Below, one piece after another: positions 7,624 to 29,535 of a DNA stretch of 64,000 bases. The DNA is from a virus (Duplodnaviria; Heunggongvirae; Uroviricota; Caudoviricetes), in IMG/VR virus record IMGVR_UViG_3300005329_000001; one strand, written 5' to 3'. A program made the position numbers and the translations under genes. The notes under the pieces were generated by a model that saw only the letters and a list, made by a program, of their open reading frames with translations, made no database searches and was not told the origin of the DNA. Numbering within the stretch: the stretch's first letter is position 1; each line of letters begins with the position of its first letter.

Positions 7624-9057
7624 ATGTCTGAGTTCGCTCCTGGGATCCCGGCGAAGCACGTTTCACACGATCTTCCGCACGTCGAGGAGCGAAAGACGTG
7701 GGAATTGACTGTTCACGACCATCACGCTGAGAGACGCGGCCGCCACTTCGACCTTCGACTCGGAGATCCAGCTACCGGACACGCCCATTCGTGGGCGATG
7801 CACGCTCAGTGGCCGAAGCCGGGCGAGAAGACCTGGGCCATCCAGCAGCCGACACACACGATGAAGTACATGGACTTCGTCGGGAAGATCGAGGATGGCT
7901 ACGGCAAGGGCGACGTGAAGATGTTCGATCGAGCTAAGACAGAAATCACCAATGCTCGGCCCGGACACGTCAGCTTCAACGTCTACCGAGGCAGCGGGCC
8001 GGAAGAGTACTCCCTCCATCGGGTCGGAGACAAGCAGTGGATTCTGATGAATCGCACGCTGCGGCGGGAGCAGCATCCAGAGCTCCCAACCGACAAGCCC
8101 AAGTACAAGGAAACCAAGCTCTCTGACCCGAAGATCCACACCGACGACTACGTCTTCTCAGCCAAGATCGACGACGCTCACAACCTCTTCTACTTTCCCA
8201 AGGCGGGTGAGAAGATCCGGGTACTTTCGTACCGCGCCGCGAAGAGAAGCAACGGAGGACTGATTGAACACACGCACAAGGTCCCCGGAATCCTGGAGGG
8301 AGTACCTACGCCGGAAGGACTCGGAGGAACGATCCTTCGAGGAGGCTTGTACGCGATTTCACCAAGAAGTGGAATCGCTACGCCGGCAGCCCAACTCGCC
8401 GGCCTTCTCAACTCCGATGTCTGGAAGAGTCGTCAGAAGCAAGAAGAACACGGACAACTCAACTCCGTCCTCTACGACGTCGTCCAGTACAAAGGCCGCA
8501 AGATGGAGAGCGCTCCTTACTCGGAGAAGCTGAAAGTTCTTCGAGAGGTAGAGGCGAAATTGCCGGACTACTTCCACCTGCCTCGCATGGCCTTCACCGA
8601 GACGGCTAAGAAAAAAATGGTGGAAGACATGAAGGAAGGGAAGATGCCGGAGACGAAGGAGGGCATCGTCGCCTGGCATCTTCACCAAGGAACACCACCG
8701 TACAAGGCAAAGTTCTCGACGGACCACGATGTCTACATTCGCGGCTTCTTCCCTGGCGAGGGCAAGTACAAGGACCGTGGGGTGGGAGGCTTCTTCTACT
8801 CCTACGAGCCTGATGGGCCGATCGTTGGCCGCGTCGGAACAGGGCTCAGTGATGCTCAGCGCTCTCACATGCACTCGAGCCCAGAGGTCTACATGGGAAC
8901 AGTGGCGCGCGTGAAGGCGCAGGAGCGGTTCCCGTCTGGAGCTCTGAGAGCTCCCGCCTTCGACGCGTGGCACCTAGATAAAAACGATCCAGAGGCGCTC
9001 GCGTTGGTGAAGCACGCGTCTCTGGATCATGAGCTAGTCTTCTTGTGGGACGTCTAG
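7624..9057 (+). CDS. LigD-type 3'-phosphoesterase (PE) domain fused to an ATP-dependent polynucleotide ligase (nucleotidyltransferase plus OB fold)
   Basis: The N-terminus TVHDHHAERRGRHFDLRLGD matches the LigD-PE HxDxRLE core. Ligase motif I is AKIDDAH (a KxDG variant). Motif III is LYDVVQY, motif IV EGIVAW and motif V YKAKF. This is the only plus-strand gene in the left arm, and its 3' end overlaps the next gene by 4 nt. Confidence 0.75.
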   Translation: MSEFAPGIPAKHVSHDLPHVEERKTWELTVHDHHAERRGRHFDLRLGDPATGHAHSWAMHAQWPKPGEKTWAIQQPTHTMKYMDFVGKIEDGYGKGDVKMFDRAKTEITNARPGHVSFNVYRGSGPEEYSLHRVGDKQWILMNRTLRREQHPELPTDKPKYKETKLSDPKIHTDDYVFSAKIDDAHNLFYFPKAGEKIRVLSYRAAKRSNGGLIEHTHKVPGILEGVPTPEGLGGTILRGGLYAISPRSGIATPAAQLAGLLNSDVWKSRQKQEEHGQLNSVLYDVVQYKGRKMESAPYSEKLKVLREVEAKLPDYFHLPRMAFTETAKKKMVEDMKEGKMPETKEGIVAWHLHQGTPPYKAKFSTDHDVYIRGFFPGEGKYKDRGVGGFFYSYEPDGPIVGRVGTGLSDAQRSHMHSSPEVYMGTVARVKAQERFPSGALRAPAFDAWHLDKNDPEALALVKHASLDHELVFLWDV

Positions 9058-10421
9058 GTTCTGAACTTCTTGTCCGGCCCAGGTCCTGTCGAGATGATGC
9101 CGATCGGCGTATTTAGGTGTTGCTTCATGATGTGCAGGAAGGCGTCGGTGTCTTTCGGGGCGCGCTCATAGATCGGAACGACCCTGGACAGTGCCTTTGC
9201 TAGGTACTCCTGCCCGGCATAGGTCGGATGCTTCTCGACGTGAATGTCGAGCGCTCGATGAGCTGGGCTGCCGAATTGGAACATGACCTCGTCTTCCTCT
9301 TCGTAGACAGAGTACCCAGTGCAGAGCCACATGAAATGATCGCGTTGGTCGATGTGAGTCATGGCGATCTCATCGACGCCGCCGAGGACCTCGAGAGCGT
9401 AGCGCGTCAATAAGACGTCCGGCGTTCCAATACGGAACTCTCGCTGCCACAATCCCATCCCATTGTGCTTGTCGAAGACGAGCTCCTTGATTTTGCCGTC
9501 CTCGATGCCGAAGATCTCATCTTGCGTCGGTAGCGGGCCGGCTCCATGGCGCGTCATGTATGAACGCATGACTCCGACCTTCCAGATGTCGCCGTCATAC
9601 CCGGCTGCGTCGAGTATCTGACGAGCTCCAGTGAAGGTTGCATCCGTCCAAGCAGTGTAGGGCTGGAAGCCGTAGTCTTGGTCGAGTAGCGCTCCCTGTG
9701 CGCCTTCGAAGACTAGATTCTTTCCTCGGAACATGCACGGCAGGCTATCGGCATCGACAGTTCTGAAGAGGCCCGCAAGATCGTGGAGCTGGTCCACCAT
9801 GTGCTCCACCCGATCGGCTGGGAAGGTGAACCAGCGAAGAGCGCGATGGGCGATGTCTGGAAGGGACACGTCCAGGACTTGTGTCTTGAACTCTTCATAC
9901 TTCCTGTCCTGTACGGACTTGAATTTGCGGAGAAGCGTTGTTCTATCTGAAAGATCACCGACGGCGATCGTATCGTTGTGTGAAGAGAGCGAGTCCTGCT
10001 TGGTCTCGCCGATCCCCATTCCACAGCTCCCGTGGCGCCAGTCGCCACGAAGAATCTCGCGAAGCTGGTTCGCGGCTTTATGGAAAGGCGTGACGACGAG
10101 AGCGTTGCGATCGAATGCCACGAGGACATTCGCATTTTCGATGCCGAGCCGCTCGAGTTGCAAGAACTCGCTCAAGAAGGCAGACGGCTCGATGATAGTG
10201 TGACGAGACATGAAGGTGGGGACTCCTTCGAACGTCGCACTACCAAACTGCGAGAACGTGTGATGTCGGCCGTCCTGAGCATAGACATTGTGCGCCGCCT
10301 GAGCGCCCCCGTTGTAGCGAATGACCCAGTCGGCCTTGGTCTCCCTGGCGAGGTATTGCGTGATGGTTCCCTTACCCTCGTCGCCGAACCCCAATCCGGC
10401 AACCAGAATGGCTTTGCTCAT
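9054..10421 (-). CDS. Adenylosuccinate synthetase-family protein (PurA homologue and candidate PurZ)
   Basis: P-loop GDEGKGT (E. coli PurA has GDEGKGK). Motifs GGAQAAHN (His41 equivalent kept), GSCGMGIGETKQD, FEGAQGALLDQDYG, RHGAGPLPTQ and IISTGPGPD align collinearly with E. coli PurA. Confidence 0.8.
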   Translation of the reverse strand: MSKAILVAGLGFGDEGKGTITQYLARETKADWVIRYNGGAQAAHNVYAQDGRHHTFSQFGSATFEGVPTFMSRHTIIEPSAFLSEFLQLERLGIENANVLVAFDRNALVVTPFHKAANQLREILRGDWRHGSCGMGIGETKQDSLSSHNDTIAVGDLSDRTTLLRKFKSVQDRKYEEFKTQVLDVSLPDIAHRALRWFTFPADRVEHMVDQLHDLAGLFRTVDADSLPCMFRGKNLVFEGAQGALLDQDYGFQPYTAWTDATFTGARQILDAAGYDGDIWKVGVMRSYMTRHGAGPLPTQDEIFGIEDGKIKELVFDKHNGMGLWQREFRIGTPDVLLTRYALEVLGGVDEIAMTHIDQRDHFMWLCTGYSVYEEEDEVMFQFGSPAHRALDIHVEKHPTYAGQEYLAKALSRVVPIYERAPKDTDAFLHIMKQHLNTPIGIISTGPGPDKKFRT

Positions 10422-10470: not shown

Positions 10471-10617
10471 CTACCAGAACTTGCGGATGAAGTGAATGGC
10501 GGCCCAGACGAGTCCGCCGCCGATTGCGATACCGATGATCATCCCGAGAGCCCAGACGCTGAAGAACATCTTTTCCAGCATACCGCCGGGCCCCGAGCCT
10601 CTCCTTTGCAGGTTCAT
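10471..10617 (-). CDS. Small single-pass membrane protein (48 aa), translationally coupled to the vWA gene
   Basis: Product MNLQRRGSGPGGMLEKMFFSVWALGMIIGIAIGGGLVWAAIHFIRKFW. Its ATG overlaps the vWA stop (TGATG). Confidence 0.4.
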   Translation of the reverse strand: MNLQRRGSGPGGMLEKMFFSVWALGMIIGIAIGGGLVWAAIHFIRKFW

Positions 10618-11639
10618 CAGAGACGCTTGGCCCCGCTGGAGGCGGAGCTCGGGGTGAGGGTGCCGGCCGGGACCTTCGCGATCTTGCCGCCGGCGTAGGC
10701 CTTGCTGACCGAGTTGGCGACGACCATGGCCGTCGAGTCCGAGGTGCCCACGTCCTTCATGTCCGTCACAGCGGCGTCGACGTCCGTGGTGCCTTCGCAG
10801 AGGCCGATCTGAGTAGCGATCAGCTCGGGTGTGCCGCTCGAGTCGTCGATCTTGAGAATGTGCTCCTTGCCGAACAGGCGGCCCCAGTTCTCGACGACGC
10901 GGTGATCGCGGGCGTTGCTGGCGTGCGTCGGCAGGACGAAGAAGCACTCGAACTTCTGCTTCAGCTCCTCGGCGATGATCTCGGTCGGGATGTCGGCTTC
11001 GATGTCGATGTCGAGGAACTGCTTGACCACGGTCTTCTTGATCGACGGATACGGCGACTCGTCCCCGATGATGAAGAGGTAGCCCTTCTGCCCGCGCTTC
11101 TCGAAGCAGTCCATCGCGGTGTGGCGAGCGGCGAAGTACATCAGGAGATCATAGCTCTCCTGCGCCGTGCCACCGCCGCCACCTTCGATCCAGAACTTCG
11201 AGAGGTCGTCCTCCATCTCAACGCCCGACTCGAACTGCCCGAGCTGAAGCGGGGCCCTATCCGAGAAGGCGTCGCCGACGGCGGCGTACAAGATCTGCGG
11301 GTCCTCGAGGTAGCCCTTACGGGTCAGGAGCCCCATCAGGGCCGAGAGGCGGCCGTGGACGATGTGAGACTGCTCGCCCATCGAGCCGGTGACGTCCAAG
11401 CCGACGATGACGCCCTTCGAATTTGGATGCGCGTCGCTGTCGCGGCTCTCGCGCACCTTGATGCCACTCGGGTCCAGAGGATTGGACTTCATGCTCTTGG
11501 GGTCGAGCTTCGGCGCCACCGCCGCGGCCACCTTGGCAGCCTTGACGTCGGCGTCGTAGGTGAAGGCGGTGCCGTGCGAATCGAGCTTGCTGCCGACGCT
11601 GAGATTGTAGTCCTCGTCGCTCCAACGTGATCCACCCAT
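10617..11639 (-). CDS. von Willebrand factor A (vWA) domain protein with a MIDAS motif
   Basis: DxSxS MIDAS motif in VIVGLDVTGSMG. Downstream hydrophobic beta-strand pattern FIIGDESPYP. RBS AAGGAGA. Confidence 0.8.
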   Translation of the reverse strand: MGGSRWSDEDYNLSVGSKLDSHGTAFTYDADVKAAKVAAAVAPKLDPKSMKSNPLDPSGIKVRESRDSDAHPNSKGVIVGLDVTGSMGEQSHIVHGRLSALMGLLTRKGYLEDPQILYAAVGDAFSDRAPLQLGQFESGVEMEDDLSKFWIEGGGGGTAQESYDLLMYFAARHTAMDCFEKRGQKGYLFIIGDESPYPSIKKTVVKQFLDIDIEADIPTEIIAEELKQKFECFFVLPTHASNARDHRVVENWGRLFGKEHILKIDDSSGTPELIATQIGLCEGTTDVDAAVTDMKDVGTSDSTAMVVANSVSKAYAGGKIAKVPAGTLTPSSASSGAKRL

Positions 11640-11651
11640 TTGCGTTCTCCT

Positions 11652-12725
11652 TTAGGCCGGTGAGGGCATGTGAAACGGGACGTACTTCTTGGGACCGTAA
11701 TGAACCCGCATGTGGTCCTTGAGCTCTCGGTGGAGAGCCCAGGCGTCTTGCGGGCGAGATGCCGGTGACTTGATGGTGCAGCTTCTCAGGAAGTTCAGAA
11801 AGTAGTTCGGGATATGGCCGGGGTAGACGTCAGCCCCGGGACGGACATCGCCGCCGAGTACGTGGATGATACTCTTGGCAGCCATGTAGATGTCGGTGGC
11901 GGGCGAGACCGGGCGCTTGGCGAAGATTTCGGGCGGGTAGAACGCCTCATACTCCGGGCTGATGGCTTTGATCGTTCCACCCACCTGCACGGAATATGAC
12001 CACCCCACCAGCCGAGCGCCATGGTTGAGGATGTCTTTTTCTTGGGTTCCCGCGTAGACGAGAGCATGTGGAGGAATCACCGCTCCATGCACTCGATTCT
12101 GCTTGTTGTGCAGGTAACCGAGAAACTCCAGCATGCGATTGAACATCCAAACCCCGTGCTCCATCTGCAGCCTCGGATGAGCGGCGCGAACCTTCTCGAG
12201 AGAGTAGTAGCCGTTCAGCCACTGCATGAGGTTCGCCTGTCGGCGAGAGCCGTCGTCGATCTTCAAGCTCCCGATCAACTTCGGCAGGTAGAGATGGTAC
12301 TTGTGGCTTGAGACGTCTGAAGGATAGATCTCCTTCAGGACTTTCGCCTCGTTCTCGAGGAGGTCATTGTCTCGTGGTGATCGCGCGACCTTCAAAGCGA
12401 AGACTTCTCCCGTATCTTCCTTGATGGCCTCGTAGATATCAGCCACCTCTCCAGTGAATGCGTTGCCGTTGATGACGAAGCGGCCCATGCGAGTCTGGAG
12501 AGTGATGGGACCACCAACCGCGCCGCTGTCGTACTTGGCTCTCTTTTGCGGATCACCGAGGACGGCGTAGGCGGCGGCCAACTCTTTGAACTTCTCTTCG
12601 GCGAAGGTGTTCCCGGGGTTGGTGTCCGGGTGGTAGCGCTTGGCGAGAGCCCGGTACGCGCTCTTGATTTGCTCAGCCGTCGCCGTCTTCTTCATGCCAA
12701 GAACGTCATACAAGCTCACCGCCAT
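11652..12725 (-). CDS. J-domain (DnaJ N-terminal) fused to a degenerate Hanks-type protein kinase-like domain (predicted pseudokinase)
   Basis: The J domain [34 protein letters not shown] contains the HPD motif. The kinase-like region has VAIK-like FALKVAR, alpha[11 protein letters not shown], a catalytic loop HGAVIPPHA in which HRD-Asp is replaced by Gly, a degenerate DFG (VGW), APE-like SPE and subdomain [17 protein letters not shown]. Confidence 0.7.
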
Positions 12726-13210: not shown

Positions 13211-13939
13211 TTACGCGACGAGCGGAGCGAGTGGAGTGATTTGCTGCGTAGCCGTGACGAAGGCGAGAGTGCGCTGCGTCATGATACCGGCATCTCCGTC
13301 GACATCCAGATCCCAGGCGCGCTGGAAGACCATGACGGCTTCGCGGAAGAGCTGCGTGCTGACGTTGCCGTCGATCTCCCCGCCGTACATCTTGAGCTGC
13401 GCCAGATAGCTTTGAATCTGGACTGGCGACATCGAGAAGTCCTGGCCGTAGCGCTCGAGGATACGCATCTCGACCGCGTTGGACCACGTCGCATGGTTGT
13501 TGACGTCGACCTTCGACAGATACTTCTCTGCGTCGTCGCCAAGGTAGTTGAAGTGCCACGCCTCCGACTCGTCCGGTCCCAATCCATCGCGACGATGGCA
13601 GTACCAGCCGTGGGCCTTCATCACCTCGACGATGTCGCCATAGTGGATCTTGAATGCCTTCATGATGGCATAGAGATCGAGATCAACAGCGAGACCGTAT
13701 CCGTGCGGGCTGTAGCCAGGACGCTGTACTCCGCGCTTCACGCGACGGGCCGCAAGCGATGAGTCGGCGGACCGCCACACGTCCGTGTAGATGTAGCCGC
13801 CCGTATCCTTGTCGAGACGCAGCAGTGCTGGTCCAACGTCAGGGGCCAGAAAGCGCATGCGACGGGGAACCTGGCCTTTGTAGTCGGCGTCGTTCGGCCC
13901 CTTGATCGTGGACGGCATCTCGACGAGCTTGAGGATCAT
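13211..13939 (-). CDS. Endolysin: M15-family (VanY / L-Ala-D-Glu or DD-peptidase-like) zinc peptidase with a C-terminal peptidoglycan-binding (PG_binding_1-like) domain
   Basis: Motif SPHGYGLAVDLD (the H...D zinc ligands of M15). The C-terminus LFREAVMVFQRAWDLDVDGDAGIMTQRTL is a PG-binding repeat. The start overlaps the upstream lipoprotein stop (ATGA). Confidence 0.8.
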   Translation of the reverse strand: MILKLVEMPSTIKGPNDADYKGQVPRRMRFLAPDVGPALLRLDKDTGGYIYTDVWRSADSSLAARRVKRGVQRPGYSPHGYGLAVDLDLYAIMKAFKIHYGDIVEVMKAHGWYCHRRDGLGPDESEAWHFNYLGDDAEKYLSKVDVNNHATWSNAVEMRILERYGQDFSMSPVQIQSYLAQLKMYGGEIDGNVSTQLFREAVMVFQRAWDLDVDGDAGIMTQRTLAFVTATQQITPLAPLVA

Positions 13940-14328
13940 TGTGATGCCCTCTTCTTTTGCCTCTTCGCCTTCTTAGCCTGCGCCCCAGGACTGCCGTCCT
14001 CGCCGTCTTGCACATGAACGCAAGCGTGGTCGTCCAAGCACCCTGCGCTCCCGCTGGCGCAGTAGATGCCGTCCGACTCGTCATAGCAGGCAGCGCCTCC
14101 GTGGCAGATTGCGCAGGAGAGCCCGACCTTGGTGAACATGCCGTCGCAGACGTCGGCGTAGGTCACCGAGAGGTTTGCTGGGCAGTTGGGCAAGCCGTAG
14201 ATGTTCGGCTTCATGTCTGCCGGCGATTGAGCCATGTCCTGCTGCACCGGCTGCGGCGGTGTCGGAGGAGGAAGTGGATGACAGCCTCCGCAGCCGGCGA
14301 GCAAGACAAGAATCAGGGAGAAGCGCAT
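13936..14328 (-). CDS. Cys-rich lipoprotein (o-spanin-like) with lipobox LAGC and a Pro-rich linker
   Basis: Product MRFSLILVLLAGCGGC-HPLPPPTPPQPVQQ... about 130 aa. It sits between the C1 peptidase and the endolysin with overlapping stop and start. The ORF track lists a longer version starting at 14577. Confidence 0.6.
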   Translation of the reverse strand: MRFSLILVLLAGCGGCHPLPPPTPPQPVQQDMAQSPADMKPNIYGLPNCPANLSVTYADVCDGMFTKVGLSCAICHGGAACYDESDGIYCASGSAGCLDDHACVHVQDGEDGSPGAQAKKAKRQKKRASQ

Positions 14329-14329
14329 C

Positions 14330-15130
14330 TCAGACCTCCGCCCGGCGAATGGTCCAGCAGTCGGACACCAACGCGCCCTCGCCGCCCATCCAGAACGAAT
14401 AGGGCAGCCAGAAGAAGCCTCCCTCACCCCATCCGGTTCCCCACGAGTTCTGGCACAGCACAGCGCCTCGCTCGGCCCCGCAGACCATGTTGTCGTTGTA
14501 GCCGACTGCCAGGACGGCATGCCCGCCGTCGAACGCCTCTCCAGGCGCTGGCGGCTTGACGACGCCTGTCCGGGCACACTCGTCGCTCATCATGTTGTCC
14601 GGCACCGAGAAGCCGATGACGACGGGGAAGCCCTGGAAGAGGGAGGCCTTCAGGGTGTAGAGGTTCGGGCAGCGGAAGTAGAGAATTGCCTTGTGGTTGA
14701 GCGCCTCCGCCTTCGCTTGCGGTGGTGGGATCACCGAGAACTTCGACGTGTCGTAGGGCCACGTGAGCTCCTGCGGCACGCCATAGGTGGAGAGCGCCTT
14801 CATGACGTCGCGGATTTGCGCTCCACTGTCTTCGTAGAGCGGAGTACCCTCGAGCATCCGCGTCATCGCGTAGATGAACAGGCGAGAGTACAGCGTCGCC
14901 TGCTGCCCCTTGTGTTCCAAGAAGGCGAGCGCGGATGAACTCGAGTTTGCTGTGCAGGAGCCGATCTGGCCCTGGTCCATCACCGGAGGGCATCGATCAC
15001 TAAGGTCGACGGTATCCGGTAGAGCGAGCTCTTCGCTGACCGTCAGCCGGCGATCCCTCGGGTCTGGAGTGTCGGGCTTCCATCCCTTCATGTGCCGGAC
15101 GACGCCGGCGACGGTAGCGAAACGGCTCAC
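14330..15130 (-). CDS. Papain-like cysteine peptidase (C1 family) inside the lysis cassette
   Basis: Catalytic Cys context QGQIGSCTANS, catalytic His GGHAVLAVGY and NSWGTGWGEGGFF (the Asn/Trp oxyanion region). Confidence 0.8.
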   Translation of the reverse strand: MSRFATVAGVVRHMKGWKPDTPDPRDRRLTVSEELALPDTVDLSDRCPPVMDQGQIGSCTANSSSSALAFLEHKGQQATLYSRLFIYAMTRMLEGTPLYEDSGAQIRDVMKALSTYGVPQELTWPYDTSKFSVIPPPQAKAEALNHKAILYFRCPNLYTLKASLFQGFPVVIGFSVPDNMMSDECARTGVVKPPAPGEAFDGGHAVLAVGYNDNMVCGAERGAVLCQNSWGTGWGEGGFFWLPYSFWMGGEGALVSDCWTIRRAEV

Positions 15131-17558: not shown

Positions 17559-17927
17559 TCATGGTTCTTCTCCTTTCTTCTCTTCGATGGTGGTTTCTCC
17601 GCAGATCTGCCGCATCGTGCTCACGAGAGCTTTGATATCGTACGGCTTCGGCACTTCAGCCGCAACAGGACGCGGCGGAGGTGACGAGAAGGCGGTGGAG
17701 TAGATGACCGGGATCGTGCCGCGGTAATGCTCCAAGAACTCTTCCCCATCCATGATGGGCATGCGGCAATCGAGGATGATGATGTCGAAGCGGGTGTCGC
17801 GGAGGAGAATGTCGAGTGCTTCTTGTCCATTGTAGGCTGATACGACCTCGAACTTGAAGATCAGCCTGAACCACTCGCCCACCGAGACTTGCGTCGCTCT
17901 GTCATCCTCGATGAACAGAATCCTCAT
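17559..17927 (-). CDS. Stand-alone response-regulator receiver (CheY-like REC) domain protein
   Basis: Product MRILFIEDD (acidic pair). Phospho-acceptor Asp in IIILDCRMP, YST (Thr/Ser) and PKPYD (Lys). 123 aa. RBS AGGGGA. The ORF-track 5' extension is a translation of the tmRNA antisense. Confidence 0.7.
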   Translation of the reverse strand: MRILFIEDDRATQVSVGEWFRLIFKFEVVSAYNGQEALDILLRDTRFDIIILDCRMPIMDGEEFLEHYRGTIPVIYSTAFSSPPPRPVAAEVPKPYDIKALVSTMRQICGETTIEEKKGEEP

Positions 17928-21975: not shown

Positions 21976-22156
21976 AGTCAAGATGTTCTTGGCGCAGGTG
22001 GAGACCAGCACCGGCGAAGAGGACTACCTCATGGCGGTGATCGGCAACGAGCTCCGCATCATCGAGGTCAAGTCGCGTAAGCCGGCCGAGTGGCTGAAGA
22101 AGGTGTTCTTCGATCGCCTGGCCAAGCGCAACAACGGTGGTGTGGAGCAGACCTGA
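21890..22156 (+). CDS. Hypothetical protein (88 aa)
   Basis: Strong RBS AGGAGG 7 nt upstream of ATG (MATNEKVLE). Ends VEQT-stop coupled to the GroES start. Confidence 0.5.
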   Translation: MATNEKVLEIPLQTGTSGAESNRKVGFAEVKMFLAQVETSTGEEDYLMAVIGNELRIIEVKSRKPAEWLKKVFFDRLAKRNNGGVEQT

Positions 22157-22530
22157 TGCACCTGCCAACGAACAGGACCTGGCAGCAGTGCGACCCGATC
22201 GGTGATTGGATCATCGCCAGGACGGAGAAGCGCGTCACGAAGACAGCCGGTGGCATTCATCTGCCGGACCAGATCGTCTCCATTGAGCGCGTCATGCCGG
22301 TCGCGGCTCGCATTCTGAAGGTCGGGAAGCGGGCCGGTGAGGTCGTCGGCTTCCCTCTCGAGCCTGGGATGCGCTTCGCCTTCCGTGGCTTCTTGAAGGA
22401 CGCCTTCCACGAGTTCGCGGACGACGATGGGCTCCGGGTCTTCATGATCAAGTCGAGCGACATCCTCGCTATCATCGACGAGACCGTTCAGGTCGGAGAG
22501 TTCGTCGAGGAGCGCGAATCGGCAGCATAG
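22156..22530 (+). CDS. groES: Co-chaperonin GroES (Hsp10) homologue
   Basis: KTAGGIHLPD matches GroES KSAGGIVLTG. ARILKVG matches GEVLAVG. The C-terminus SDILAIIDE matches SDILAIVE. 124 aa. Confidence 0.75.
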   Translation: MHLPTNRTWQQCDPIGDWIIARTEKRVTKTAGGIHLPDQIVSIERVMPVAARILKVGKRAGEVVGFPLEPGMRFAFRGFLKDAFHEFADDDGLRVFMIKSSDILAIIDETVQVGEFVEERESAA

Positions 22531-28041: not shown

Positions 28042-29511
28042 CTACAGCTTCTCGTTCACACACTCATCAGCACGCTTGTCATCTCTCGCCTCCACGAACA
28101 CTGGATGCCGAAGAGCGTTCGTCTTCTCTCCGTCGGAGATGTACGTCCTGCCTTTGAACTCGCATTTGCAGACGAAGGGGAAGTGCTCCTTCCTGAGCTG
28201 TGCTTGGAACTCGTATGCCATGCCTGACGAGCACTTGGAGATATAGACCAGCTCTCCCTTGGGGTTGTACTGGTACAGAGCCACCGAGCCGACGCCACCG
28301 TGCTCGACCACGGCACCGCTCGGCAGCATCACTTCCTTGTCTCGCTCGTGCTTGCCTGTACCCCACTCACCCATGTTCTTCTTGTCCGGGTCCCAGTACG
28401 CGATGAAGTCGTCCTCGGCCGTCGGCTTGGACTTGGCGCAGCTCGAGGGGCGGTCGGGCTTGCCCTTCAGGCTCCATCCCTTGTCGCCGTAGATCGCGTC
28501 AGGGTCGACGACCACCCAACCCTCGATGCCCAGCTCCTTGGCGTGCTCGAGGGCCTTCTCCGCATTGGGGAAGTTGCAGATCTGAATCTGCTGGATGTAC
28601 TGGGGCACCGATGAGGCGCAGTGCTGGAGGATGATGTTGTAGCGATCGGCTACGCGGACGGTGCGAACCAAGTCTTGCCCGGCATAGAACGGAACGTCCC
28701 ACCAGTAGAAGACAGGCGGGTTCGAGATCTGGTCTTGTAGCGATCGTTCGGTCAGCCCTTTGGTGTACCCCGACGAGATGCGAAGGTCGTCTCTCCCTGT
28801 GACGGGGTTCACGGCGACCAGCTCGACTGCCATCATGGTGCCGTTCGGCAACTGCAACTTCTCGACGTCGGCATAGAGATGGGGGAACCGCAGGGTCCAC
28901 GGCTTCGCCGTCGAGTAGTCGAGAGTGCCGTCGGGCAACTCCAGCGGCTCTTCGGTGTCACTCCACGGACGAGACCGACGAGAGTAGAACCGAATGTTGC
29001 CGTAGAAGTCCTTGATGACCCACATCGCGACGCCGTCGCGCTTGAGCGTATGCAGTGCTTTTCCTGCATTGGTGAGCTCGAGTAGACGCTTGTGGTCTTC
29101 AAGCTCATTCTCGGGCTTGTAGAGGCAAAAGGAGCCCGGCAGGTTGGTTAGCAGGTGGTTGACGCTCTTGTCTTCATTCCGCCGATCGATGTTGTAACCG
29201 GCATCGTATTCGTCATAGCCCTCGAAGTCCCACTTCTTGCGAACGTCTCGCCGAGCTTCTGCGATCGCATCCTGGACGGTCGAGATCTCGTTCTTCTTGC
29301 CCTTGTTCTTGAGCTTGCCCTGGTAGTTGGTCTCTTGCATCGCCCCATCGAGCAGGCCGTGTCGCGTGTAGACGCGATCTTCTTCGACCCAAATCTCCCA
29401 GACGTTTGGGCGATCTCCTCGACCGTTGTGCTGGCGGAATTGCCGGATACGCCCGTCCCACTGGCGCTGCCGCTCGTCGAACGATAGAGATGCCCAACTC
29501 GAGTTATTCAT
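28042..29511 (-). CDS. ATP-dependent polynucleotide (DNA/RNA) ligase, second copy
   Basis: Motif I LKRDGVAM (KxDG). Motif III-like MMAVELVAV. Motif IV EGWVVVD. Motif V SCAKSK. I preferred ATG at 29511 (RBS GGGGAG) over the TTG start at 29535 listed by the ORF track. Confidence 0.7.
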   Translation of the reverse strand: MNNSSWASLSFDERQRQWDGRIRQFRQHNGRGDRPNVWEIWVEEDRVYTRHGLLDGAMQETNYQGKLKNKGKKNEISTVQDAIAEARRDVRKKWDFEGYDEYDAGYNIDRRNEDKSVNHLLTNLPGSFCLYKPENELEDHKRLLELTNAGKALHTLKRDGVAMWVIKDFYGNIRFYSRRSRPWSDTEEPLELPDGTLDYSTAKPWTLRFPHLYADVEKLQLPNGTMMAVELVAVNPVTGRDDLRISSGYTKGLTERSLQDQISNPPVFYWWDVPFYAGQDLVRTVRVADRYNIILQHCASSVPQYIQQIQICNFPNAEKALEHAKELGIEGWVVVDPDAIYGDKGWSLKGKPDRPSSCAKSKPTAEDDFIAYWDPDKKNMGEWGTGKHERDKEVMLPSGAVVEHGGVGSVALYQYNPKGELVYISKCSSGMAYEFQAQLRKEHFPFVCKCEFKGRTYISDGEKTNALRHPVFVEARDDKRADECVNEKL

Positions 29512-29535
29512 TTCATTCTCCCCAGTTAGAGACAA

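Follow-up and report, generated by a model that had tools for sequence, protein, structure and literature searches.

A J-domain pseudokinase, a vWA-fold protein and a divergent PurA-like protein form a conserved three-gene module of large phages and bacterial chromosomes

We analysed a stretch of 64,000 nucleotides from the tailed-phage record IMGVR_UViG_3300005329_000001 (IMG/VR), referred to below as the window, and describe here a group of four successive open reading frames (ORFs) on its minus strand. They encode, in the order of transcription, a protein fusing a J domain to a kinase fold (K), a protein of the von Willebrand factor type A (vWA) fold with a metal ion-dependent adhesion site, or MIDAS (V), a small membrane peptide, and a divergent PurA-like protein (P). 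The stop codon of K is separated from the start of V by a 12-nt spacer containing an AGGAGA ribosome-binding site, and the stop codon of V shares one nucleotide with the start codon of the small ORF, as TGATG. A preliminary description of this DNA had proposed a three-gene operon at 10471-12725, composed of K, V and the small ORF. We found that this operon had been drawn too short, as the adjacent gene P is the third constant partner of K and V. The coordinates of all these features are collected in Table 1.

Table 1. Features of the K-V-P locus in the window
Feature	Coordinates	Strand	Size or basis
Gene K, J-domain/pseudokinase fusion (predicted)	11652-12725	-	357 amino acids; ORF listing
J domain of K (residues 5-66, H32-P33-D34)	12528-12713	-	Pfam DnaJ
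Protein-kinase fold of K (residues ~73-345)	11691-12509	-	CK2 alpha alignment
Gene V, vWA-fold protein with MIDAS	10617-11639	-	340 amino acids
Small ORF, single-span membrane peptide	10471-10617	-	48 amino acids; ORF listing
GC stem with UUCG loop	10438-10463	-	RNA fold
Gene P, divergent PurA-like protein	9054-10421	-	455 amino acids; Pfam Adenylsucc_synt, E 1.6e-60

K, V and P are a conserved unit that travels together in large phages and in bacterial chromosomes. In all 19 kinase-anchored loci (18 from IMG/VR and that of mycobacteriophage Catera), K, V and P are encoded on a single strand in a span of about 6 kb, in the order K-V-P or V-P-K. Among 80 vWA-anchored phage loci from IMG/VR, P is present in 79 and K in 72, and the sole locus devoid of P stops at the contig edge. 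In bacteria, 59 of the 80 loci fetched carry all three genes as judged by single-query tblastn, the other 21 being mostly truncated contigs or divergent copies. All-versus-all clustering of same-strand ORFs from 162 loci recovered V in 161, P in 152 and K in 143 of them, the next-largest gene family being found in 16 (a Nudix-NrtR gene, described below, was under-counted by this clustering); the module has no fourth core gene. The pairwise identities of K, V and P correlate with one another across 120 loci (Spearman 0.48-0.70). The 120 best P homologues and the 150 best V representatives include no fusion of P with K or V.

The module is widespread. An exhaustive profile search with V gave 2344 cluster representatives at E<=1e-3, and V was found in at least 558 bacterial species when one genome per species was counted. 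Bacterial matches fall mostly in Actinomycetota (Actinoplanes, Nocardiopsis, Streptomyces, Kitasatospora), with Chloroflexota, Planctomycetota and Myxococcota as further phyla. Phage and bacterial copies are mostly separate, 13 of the 74 phage V proteins having a bacterial one as their nearest neighbour. K and V each match about 200 cluster C mycobacteriophages, and in Catera the gene order mirrors that of the window: gp249, labelled as a kinase, is followed by gp250, by the small unrelated gp251 and by gp252, labelled adenylosuccinate synthetase. The three gene families are already catalogued (PHROG 3043, 2971 and 1211), so that the window locus is a new member of an existing, unstudied family.

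The N-terminal part of K is a bona fide J domain, as had been noted at the outset. Residues 5-66 match Pfam DnaJ over model positions 2-63 of 63 (E 2e-25), the K family profile matches solved J domains at 1e-19, and K has the four-helix J-domain layout with an intact HPD motif (H32-P33-D34) between helices II and III, the AlphaFold model placing helices at residues 16-30, 39-55 and 58-66. HPD was found in 110 of 139 K homologues (about 79%), a census that depends on the ORF starts chosen. The remainder of K has the bilobal fold of Hanks-type protein kinases, which the preliminary description had also recognised, though Pfam Pkinase gives 23.5 bits, under its gathering score of 31.7. Family profiles were more sensitive: one made from 62 K homologues matches the solved kinases Sky1 (1e-12) and CK2 alpha-prime (6e-12), a kinase-only profile matches CK2 alpha (5e-11), and overall CK2, SRPK and CaMK kinases are matched at 1e-12 to 5e-11. 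A Foldseek search with the AlphaFold model of K (predicted local distance difference test score 94.8) returned hundreds of protein kinases at probability 1.0, the best match being the DNAJB1-PKA fusion 4wb7 (E 1.4e-16).

The kinase fold of K is predicted to be catalytically dead. The register was set by the CK2 alignment, in which mHRDVKPHNV of CK2 corresponds to vHGAvlPxHv of the K family. The HRD position of K thus reads H213-G214-A215; the catalytic Asp is indeed lost, as proposed before, but it was the Arg that became Gly, the Asp having become Ala. Across 140 K homologues the HRD-Asp position is occupied by Ala in 111, by Gly in 22 and by Asp in none. The catalytic-loop Lys is replaced by a hydrophobic residue in the K family, and the catalytic-loop Asn corresponds to His220 in K. 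The DFG motif is degenerate, as expected, and reads G241-W242-S243; most K relatives have D-W-C/S at this position, which resembles the DWG of CK2, and the DFG-Asp position holds D in 94, S in 21 and G in 16 of the 140 homologues. The VAIK Lys (K112) and alphaC Glu (E126), reported earlier as retained, are present in K and kept in 129 and 112 of the 140, respectively, and a single Gly is left of the Gly-rich loop. Because of its 12-residue spacing to D278 and its conservation in the family, P264-P265-E266 is the APE equivalent, and not the SPE at residues 256-258 which had been taken for it. The catalytic set of Hanks-type kinases, namely the HRD Asp, the loop Asn, the DFG Asp and the Gly-rich loop, is therefore not found in K. 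Judged from this alignment, the assignment of K as a pseudokinase is sound and extends to the whole K family.

The fusion of a J domain to a kinase fold, which the preliminary description took to be novel, is not unique to this phage. The window protein matches phrog_3043, annotated as 'kinase' (E 8e-39). It also matches a protein of some 200 mycobacteriophages of cluster C (Bixzunavirus) that bears the annotation 'serine/threonine kinase' and has HPD too, and related copies occur at many bacterial chromosomal loci. About 90 protein clusters (at 90% identity) match K, and Catera gp249 carries both HPD and HGA, like K of the window. The label 'serine/threonine kinase' is probably wrong for the K family.

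P aligns over its full length with solved PurA structures (~1e-30), and its scores lie well under the curated cut-offs: 166.5 bits against 402 for NCBIfam purA NF002223, 140.6 against 395.6 for TIGR00184, and 45.8 against 300 for PurZ NF038379. By score, P is not a PurA equivalog. We compared residues across 143 module-linked P sequences with E. coli PurA as the reference, and some of the residue roles given here are those known from the E. coli structures. P retains G12-D13-x-G-K16-G17, H41, Q224, T239, R305, D311, D333 and the C-terminal SxGP, and the catalytic residues and those binding guanosine triphosphate (GTP) in PurA (GDxGKG, H41, Q224 and D333) are nearly invariant, with D13 and K16 kept in 141 sequences each, H41 and Q224 in 143 each and D333 in 142. 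Other positions are replaced by family-specific residues: N38Q and V273H in 143 of 143 sequences, and, in the aspartate loop, T300W in 114 and T301Q in 137. Further replacements are T129C/V, R131M/V/L, S240W, K331H/C and R143 to H, Y or G, and neither R143 nor R303 of PurA is conserved in the P family. The loop reads W-Q-x-x-F-R in P, and WQxx[FLM]R in 114 of its 120 closest database homologues. In PurA, R303 touches O2' of inosine monophosphate (IMP) as well as aspartate, the equivalent of Val273 adjoins ribose C2', and the tip of the Thr-rich loop, conserved in both PurA and PurZ, touches aspartate (PMC8342488). Neither the L-aspartate loop (T300-T301-G-R303) nor the set contacting the IMP 5'-phosphate (N38, T129, R143') is thus preserved in P. 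As the catalytic core is kept, the specificity residues are replaced and the scores fall under the curated cut-offs, P is, by its sequence, a distinct PurA subfamily, neither PurA equivalog nor PurZ. Its predicted phosphoryl-transfer machinery is intact, and its amine pocket and parts of its nucleotide pocket are rebuilt, as far as conserved residues can tell.

Existing annotation of P deserves some caution. PHROGs and RefSeq label the PurA-like neighbour in the window '2-aminooxy adenylosuccinate synthetase', and Catera gp252 bears this label too, though it belongs to the Asp13-retaining family. PurZ is defined by a Ser (the Ser14 criterion) in place of PurA Asp13 (bioRxiv 10.1101/2025.10.22.683976), and P of the window reads GFGDEGKG, with the Asp retained. 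No gene of DatZ or MazZ type was seen in the precomputed Pfam annotations, which cover positions 1652-22725 of the window. With Asp13 kept, the PurZ score so low and no such partner gene seen in that interval, we rejected a Z-genome/PurZ reading. The label 'adenylosuccinate synthetase' is unproven for P and probably misleading, and '2-aminooxy adenylosuccinate synthetase', likewise unproven, is supported even less.

V has a Rossmann-like vWA fold, and neither a profile nor a sequence match was obtained for it in Pfam, NCBIfam or the PDB sequences, curated VWA profiles included. Its MIDAS consists of D82-V-T84-G-S86, E161 and D193-E194, and D82, T84, S86, E161, D193 and E194 are each conserved at 99-100% in 152 sequences; at the level of the motif the MIDAS is complete, and the earlier description of V as a vWA protein with an intact MIDAS holds. 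Two other parts of V are conserved as well. The Met-Gly N-terminus is found in 98-99% of the 152 sequences and is followed by the pattern [GS][ST]x[WY]S; independent gene calls place the start of V at this conserved Met. The C-terminal tail is low-confidence and disordered (window ~10620-10700). Its last residue is Leu in 118 of the 152 sequences, and its last two are Arg-Leu in 95; the conserved Arg-Leu-COOH looks like a docking motif. Some V homologues, including mycobacteriophage ones, hold an intein, inserted after Tyr187 and before FIIGDE, the strand with the MIDAS Asp (as in P0257 and P0378, ...KGY|CNTPD...SSN|CFIIGDE), and V consequently matches in two pieces, for instance in Mycobacterium phage Grungle. 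The position of the intein beside the MIDAS strand points to a functionally important site in V. Long V proteins among the top 150 contain an intein or, in two cases, result from an apparent frameshift or read-through. In Catera gp250 (L001, 4996-6051) the GTG annotated as the start precedes the family Met-Gly by 12 codons, and the real start is probably the ATG at MGSGAW. 'Hypothetical protein', the label given to V, is an empty one.

The small membrane ORF does not belong to the conserved unit. The preliminary description was right that its 48 amino acids include one hydrophobic span, and gene calling recovered the ORF in three metagenomic copies; as part of an operon shared with K and V, however, it did not stand. 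The peptide is conserved in the nearest relative (L185), left as a remnant in L187 and absent from L186, and tblastn found no match at other module loci, a search of low power with so short a query. We thus rejected it as a module component, and on its distribution it is a clade-specific add-on outside the core module. Between the small ORF and P lies a perfect 11-bp GC stem with a UUCG loop. The 66-nt stretch containing this hairpin folds at -32.2 kcal/mol (z -3.45; none of 200 shuffled sequences was as stable), and a terminator scan did not call it, a T-run being absent. The hairpin may be an attenuator or stability element rather than a terminator.

In Actinoplanes couchii the trio follows a gene encoding a Nudix domain with an NrtR-type winged helix and lies among ordinary chromosomal genes, and its flanks are syntenic across 15 species of Actinoplanes and Paractinoplanes, which indicates vertical inheritance of the module in Actinoplanes. 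With syntenic flanks and non-phage neighbours, a prophage origin of these copies was rejected. In 52 of the 162 loci a same-strand Nudix-NrtR gene (e.g. L180, 9252-10004) immediately precedes the trio; 46 of the 52 are among the 80 bacterial loci and 6 are from phages. It accompanies most actinobacterial and some Planctomycetota loci, and its translation contains a complete Nudix box. It is absent from the window. Several of the six phage loci that have it encode a kinase without a J domain, in the order Nudix-V-P-K. NrtR regulators respond to adenosine diphosphate ribose (ADP-ribose), and the upstream position of this gene ties the operon to nucleotide sensing, which suggests that the Nudix-NrtR partner is a nucleotide input to the operon in bacteria.

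Several known systems resemble the module in part. TerY-P triads, which are associated with tellurite resistance, consist of the vWA protein TerY, a Ser/Thr kinase and a PP2C phosphatase, and the preliminary description had compared K and V with them, noting that PP2C was missing. The latter is correct, as PP2C is found in 0 of 162 module loci. On one hand, both are three-gene units which pair a vWA/MIDAS protein with a Hanks-type kinase fold; on the other hand, the kinase of the K family is devoid of the catalytic Asp and fused to a J domain, V matches no VWA or TerY profile, and the third gene encodes a PurA-like ligase. The likeness is thus superficial, and with neither a linked PP2C nor an active Ser/Thr kinase the module is not a TerY-P system. 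Another comparison is with the chaperone-co-chaperone pairs of MoxR AAA+ ATPases and vWA proteins, such as CbbQ-CbbO and NorQ-NorD. In MoxR/vWA ternary systems (Kaur et al. 2020, PMC7159879), as we propose for the module, a MIDAS-bearing vWA protein and an ATP-driven remodelling machine act on a specific enzyme or effector. A MoxR-type AAA+ ATPase is not a conserved neighbour in the 162-locus clustering or in annotated contexts; the motor would instead be DnaK, borrowed from the host through the J domain, and the nucleoside triphosphatase (NTPase) encoded by the module is a PurA-type enzyme. The MoxR-vWA logic may nevertheless be the closest working analogy for the mechanism of the module. A J domain and a kinase fold are joined in one polypeptide also in the natural protein GAK/auxilin-2 and in DNAJB1-PRKACA of fibrolamellar carcinoma (4wb7); the latter has the same N-to-C order as K, and the kinase domain of GAK is also among the Foldseek matches. 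In contrast to K, both are active eukaryotic kinases with no vWA or PurA partner, and in GAK the J domain is C-terminal, so that the likeness is one of architecture and not of common descent. As to P, it shares with PurA and PurZ the fold, the P-loop, His41, Gln224 and Asp333, the residue that specifies guanine, differs from PurZ in keeping the Asp which is a Ser there, and from PurA in its family-specific Q38, C129, H273, W300 and Q301. In open-access papers and bioRxiv we found neither the trio nor any bacterial J-domain pseudokinase described; cluster C genome notes list 'serine/threonine kinase' and 'PurA-like adenylosuccinate synthetase'. Among modules centred on a vWA protein and coupled to an NTPase, the combination is a new variant, and it could turn out to be categorically new when its chemistry becomes known.

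The reading which we tentatively favour, while giving it somewhat less than an even chance, is that P is a PurA-type GTP-dependent ligase which works together with V as a vWA adaptor and with K as a DnaK-recruiting pseudokinase. In this scenario P would be the catalytic output, in which GTP activates a 6-oxopurine nucleotide that is then joined to an amine other than free L-aspartate. V, with its MIDAS and conserved termini, would bind P or the substrate of P. K would act as a non-catalytic, possibly nucleotide-sensing, scaffold whose J domain brings in the host DnaK, and the ATPase of DnaK would then assemble, activate or recycle the complex. Physical contact among K, V and P is what we infer from their synteny, and the J domain presumably couples assembly to DnaK. 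For the phage, such a module might serve to reshape purine-nucleotide chemistry during infection. Several observations speak against this reading. With all its catalytic residues kept, P could still be an enzyme that forms adenylosuccinate, though with altered kinetics; its Arg-rich loop, as placed by MAFFT, may be shifted by one or two positions; and at a few bacterial loci V, sometimes accompanied by K, has no P within 7 kb of it (inspection of five loci without P, namely L102, L105, L106, L108 and L131, for displacement partners showed nothing informative). Moreover, about 20% of K homologues have no J domain, from which it follows that DnaK recruitment is not obligatory for the module.

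Another possibility is that the module is an ordinary auxiliary metabolic one, in which P is a working adenylosuccinate synthetase isozyme that raises adenosine monophosphate synthesis and lowers GTP and IMP, with K and V as its regulators or stabilisers. In favour of this, P matches the PurA fold over its full length and keeps every catalytic and GTP-binding residue, databases and phage annotators label P accordingly, and nucleotide-metabolism genes are common in phages, with a ThyX gene in the vicinity of the window module. However, it is difficult to reconcile an ordinary isozyme with a family in which the loop tip has changed from TT to WQ, V273 has become His and both R303 and R143 have been lost, or with a score of 166 bits where the curated purA cut-off is 402. 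Strict linkage with two non-metabolic proteins is no known feature of PurA, and neither PurB nor any other purine gene was linked to the module in the 162-locus clustering. We thus consider the metabolic explanation unlikely.

The distribution of the module raises the question of a conflict system, be it for defence, superinfection exclusion or counter-defence, in which V and K would sense a trigger, P would deplete or modify nucleotides as the effector, and DnaK would act as a switch. The module occurs in phages and in the conflict-rich Actinomycetota, Chloroflexota, Planctomycetota and Myxococcota, the nearest-neighbour relations of phage V proteins point to some exchange between phages and bacteria, and the Nudix-NrtR partner suggests signalling by ADP-ribose-like molecules; ternary conflict systems that combine a vWA protein with an NTPase are also on record (PMC7159879). 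Nevertheless, PADLOC models miss V and P entirely and give only weak generic kinase matches for K (PD-T4-6 and MADS6), on which grounds we rejected identity with a known defence system. In addition, the Actinoplanes operon is located at a conserved syntenic site among housekeeping-type genes and not in a variable island, and no hypervariable or effector-type domains are attached to the module proteins. A role in conflict therefore seems to us distinctly unlikely.

One may also imagine a quite specific chemistry, to which we give little credence, in which the N-terminal Gly of V, exposed on removal of the initiator Met, is the amine that attacks GTP-activated IMP in place of a free amino acid. 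A purine nucleotide would then become covalently attached to the protein N-terminus via N6, the remodelled pocket of P (W300, Q301, H273 and the lost R303) would be a peptide-binding site, and the Arg-Leu tail of V might supply the arginine which PurA borrows from its dimer partner (R143) and which is lost in the P family. Loading or release of the protein so modified would fall to the J-pseudokinase and DnaK. If true, this would be a new kind of post-translational modification.

Finally, the idea based on the preliminary description, that the J-pseudokinase, V and the transmembrane peptide form a takeover device redirecting host DnaK to a trapped target independently of P, has in its favour the intact J domain and MIDAS, an inactive kinase fold that could bind a client and a phage-encoded GroES-like protein, yet it is very improbable, as K and V almost never occur without P, the peptide is not conserved, the J domain is lacking in about a fifth of K homologues, and the trio is also a chromosomal bacterial operon, where there is no host to take over; stable syntenic Actinoplanes copies outside any prophage are hard to reconcile with a host-directed Hsp70 trap, and presence in bacterial chromosomes argues against any purely host-hijacking role.

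As regards the rest of the window, its DNA has no near-identical match among deposited phages; metagenomic contigs of 185-210 kb also hold the same phage, and the window encodes myovirus-type structural genes, e.g. Baseplate_J. The GroES (Cpn10) gene at 22156-22530 (plus strand), pointed out in the preliminary description, scores above the cut-off, though marginally (23.3 bits against 21.1, E 6.7e-5). A gene of the LigD_N/DNA_ligase_OB_2 type at 7624-9057 (plus strand) is convergent with the PurA-like gene, and a second, separate ligase gene at 28042-29535 (minus strand) encodes an ATP-dependent DNA ligase (DNA_ligase_A_M). At 4351-7146 (minus strand) a protein of 931 amino acids contains a Major Vault Protein shoulder domain (PF11978, precomputed Pfam annotation), and its homologue in a relative has a faint Vault_3 match; vault-like proteins are unusual for phages. 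Immediately upstream of the K-V-P genes (13211-15130, minus strand) a PG_binding_1 protein and a papain-like Peptidase_C1 protein are encoded, a pair which may be a lysis cassette, and a gene for a stand-alone response-regulator receiver domain is found further upstream (~17559-17927, minus strand).

If K, V and P do act together as a ligase, an adaptor and a DnaK-recruiting scaffold, they would represent a widespread enzyme system that has remained unstudied. In such a system purine-nucleotide chemistry would be connected with Hsp70 recruitment, with a pseudokinase and with a MIDAS adaptor, and we found none of this kind described. The module is experimentally accessible: some 200 mycobacteriophages of cluster C, for which M. 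smegmatis is a host, carry it, and so do culturable species of Actinoplanes, Nocardiopsis and Streptomyces. The existence of the P family also calls for caution when Z-genomes or purine auxiliary metabolism are inferred from gene content, as not all phage genes of PF00709 are PurA or PurZ.

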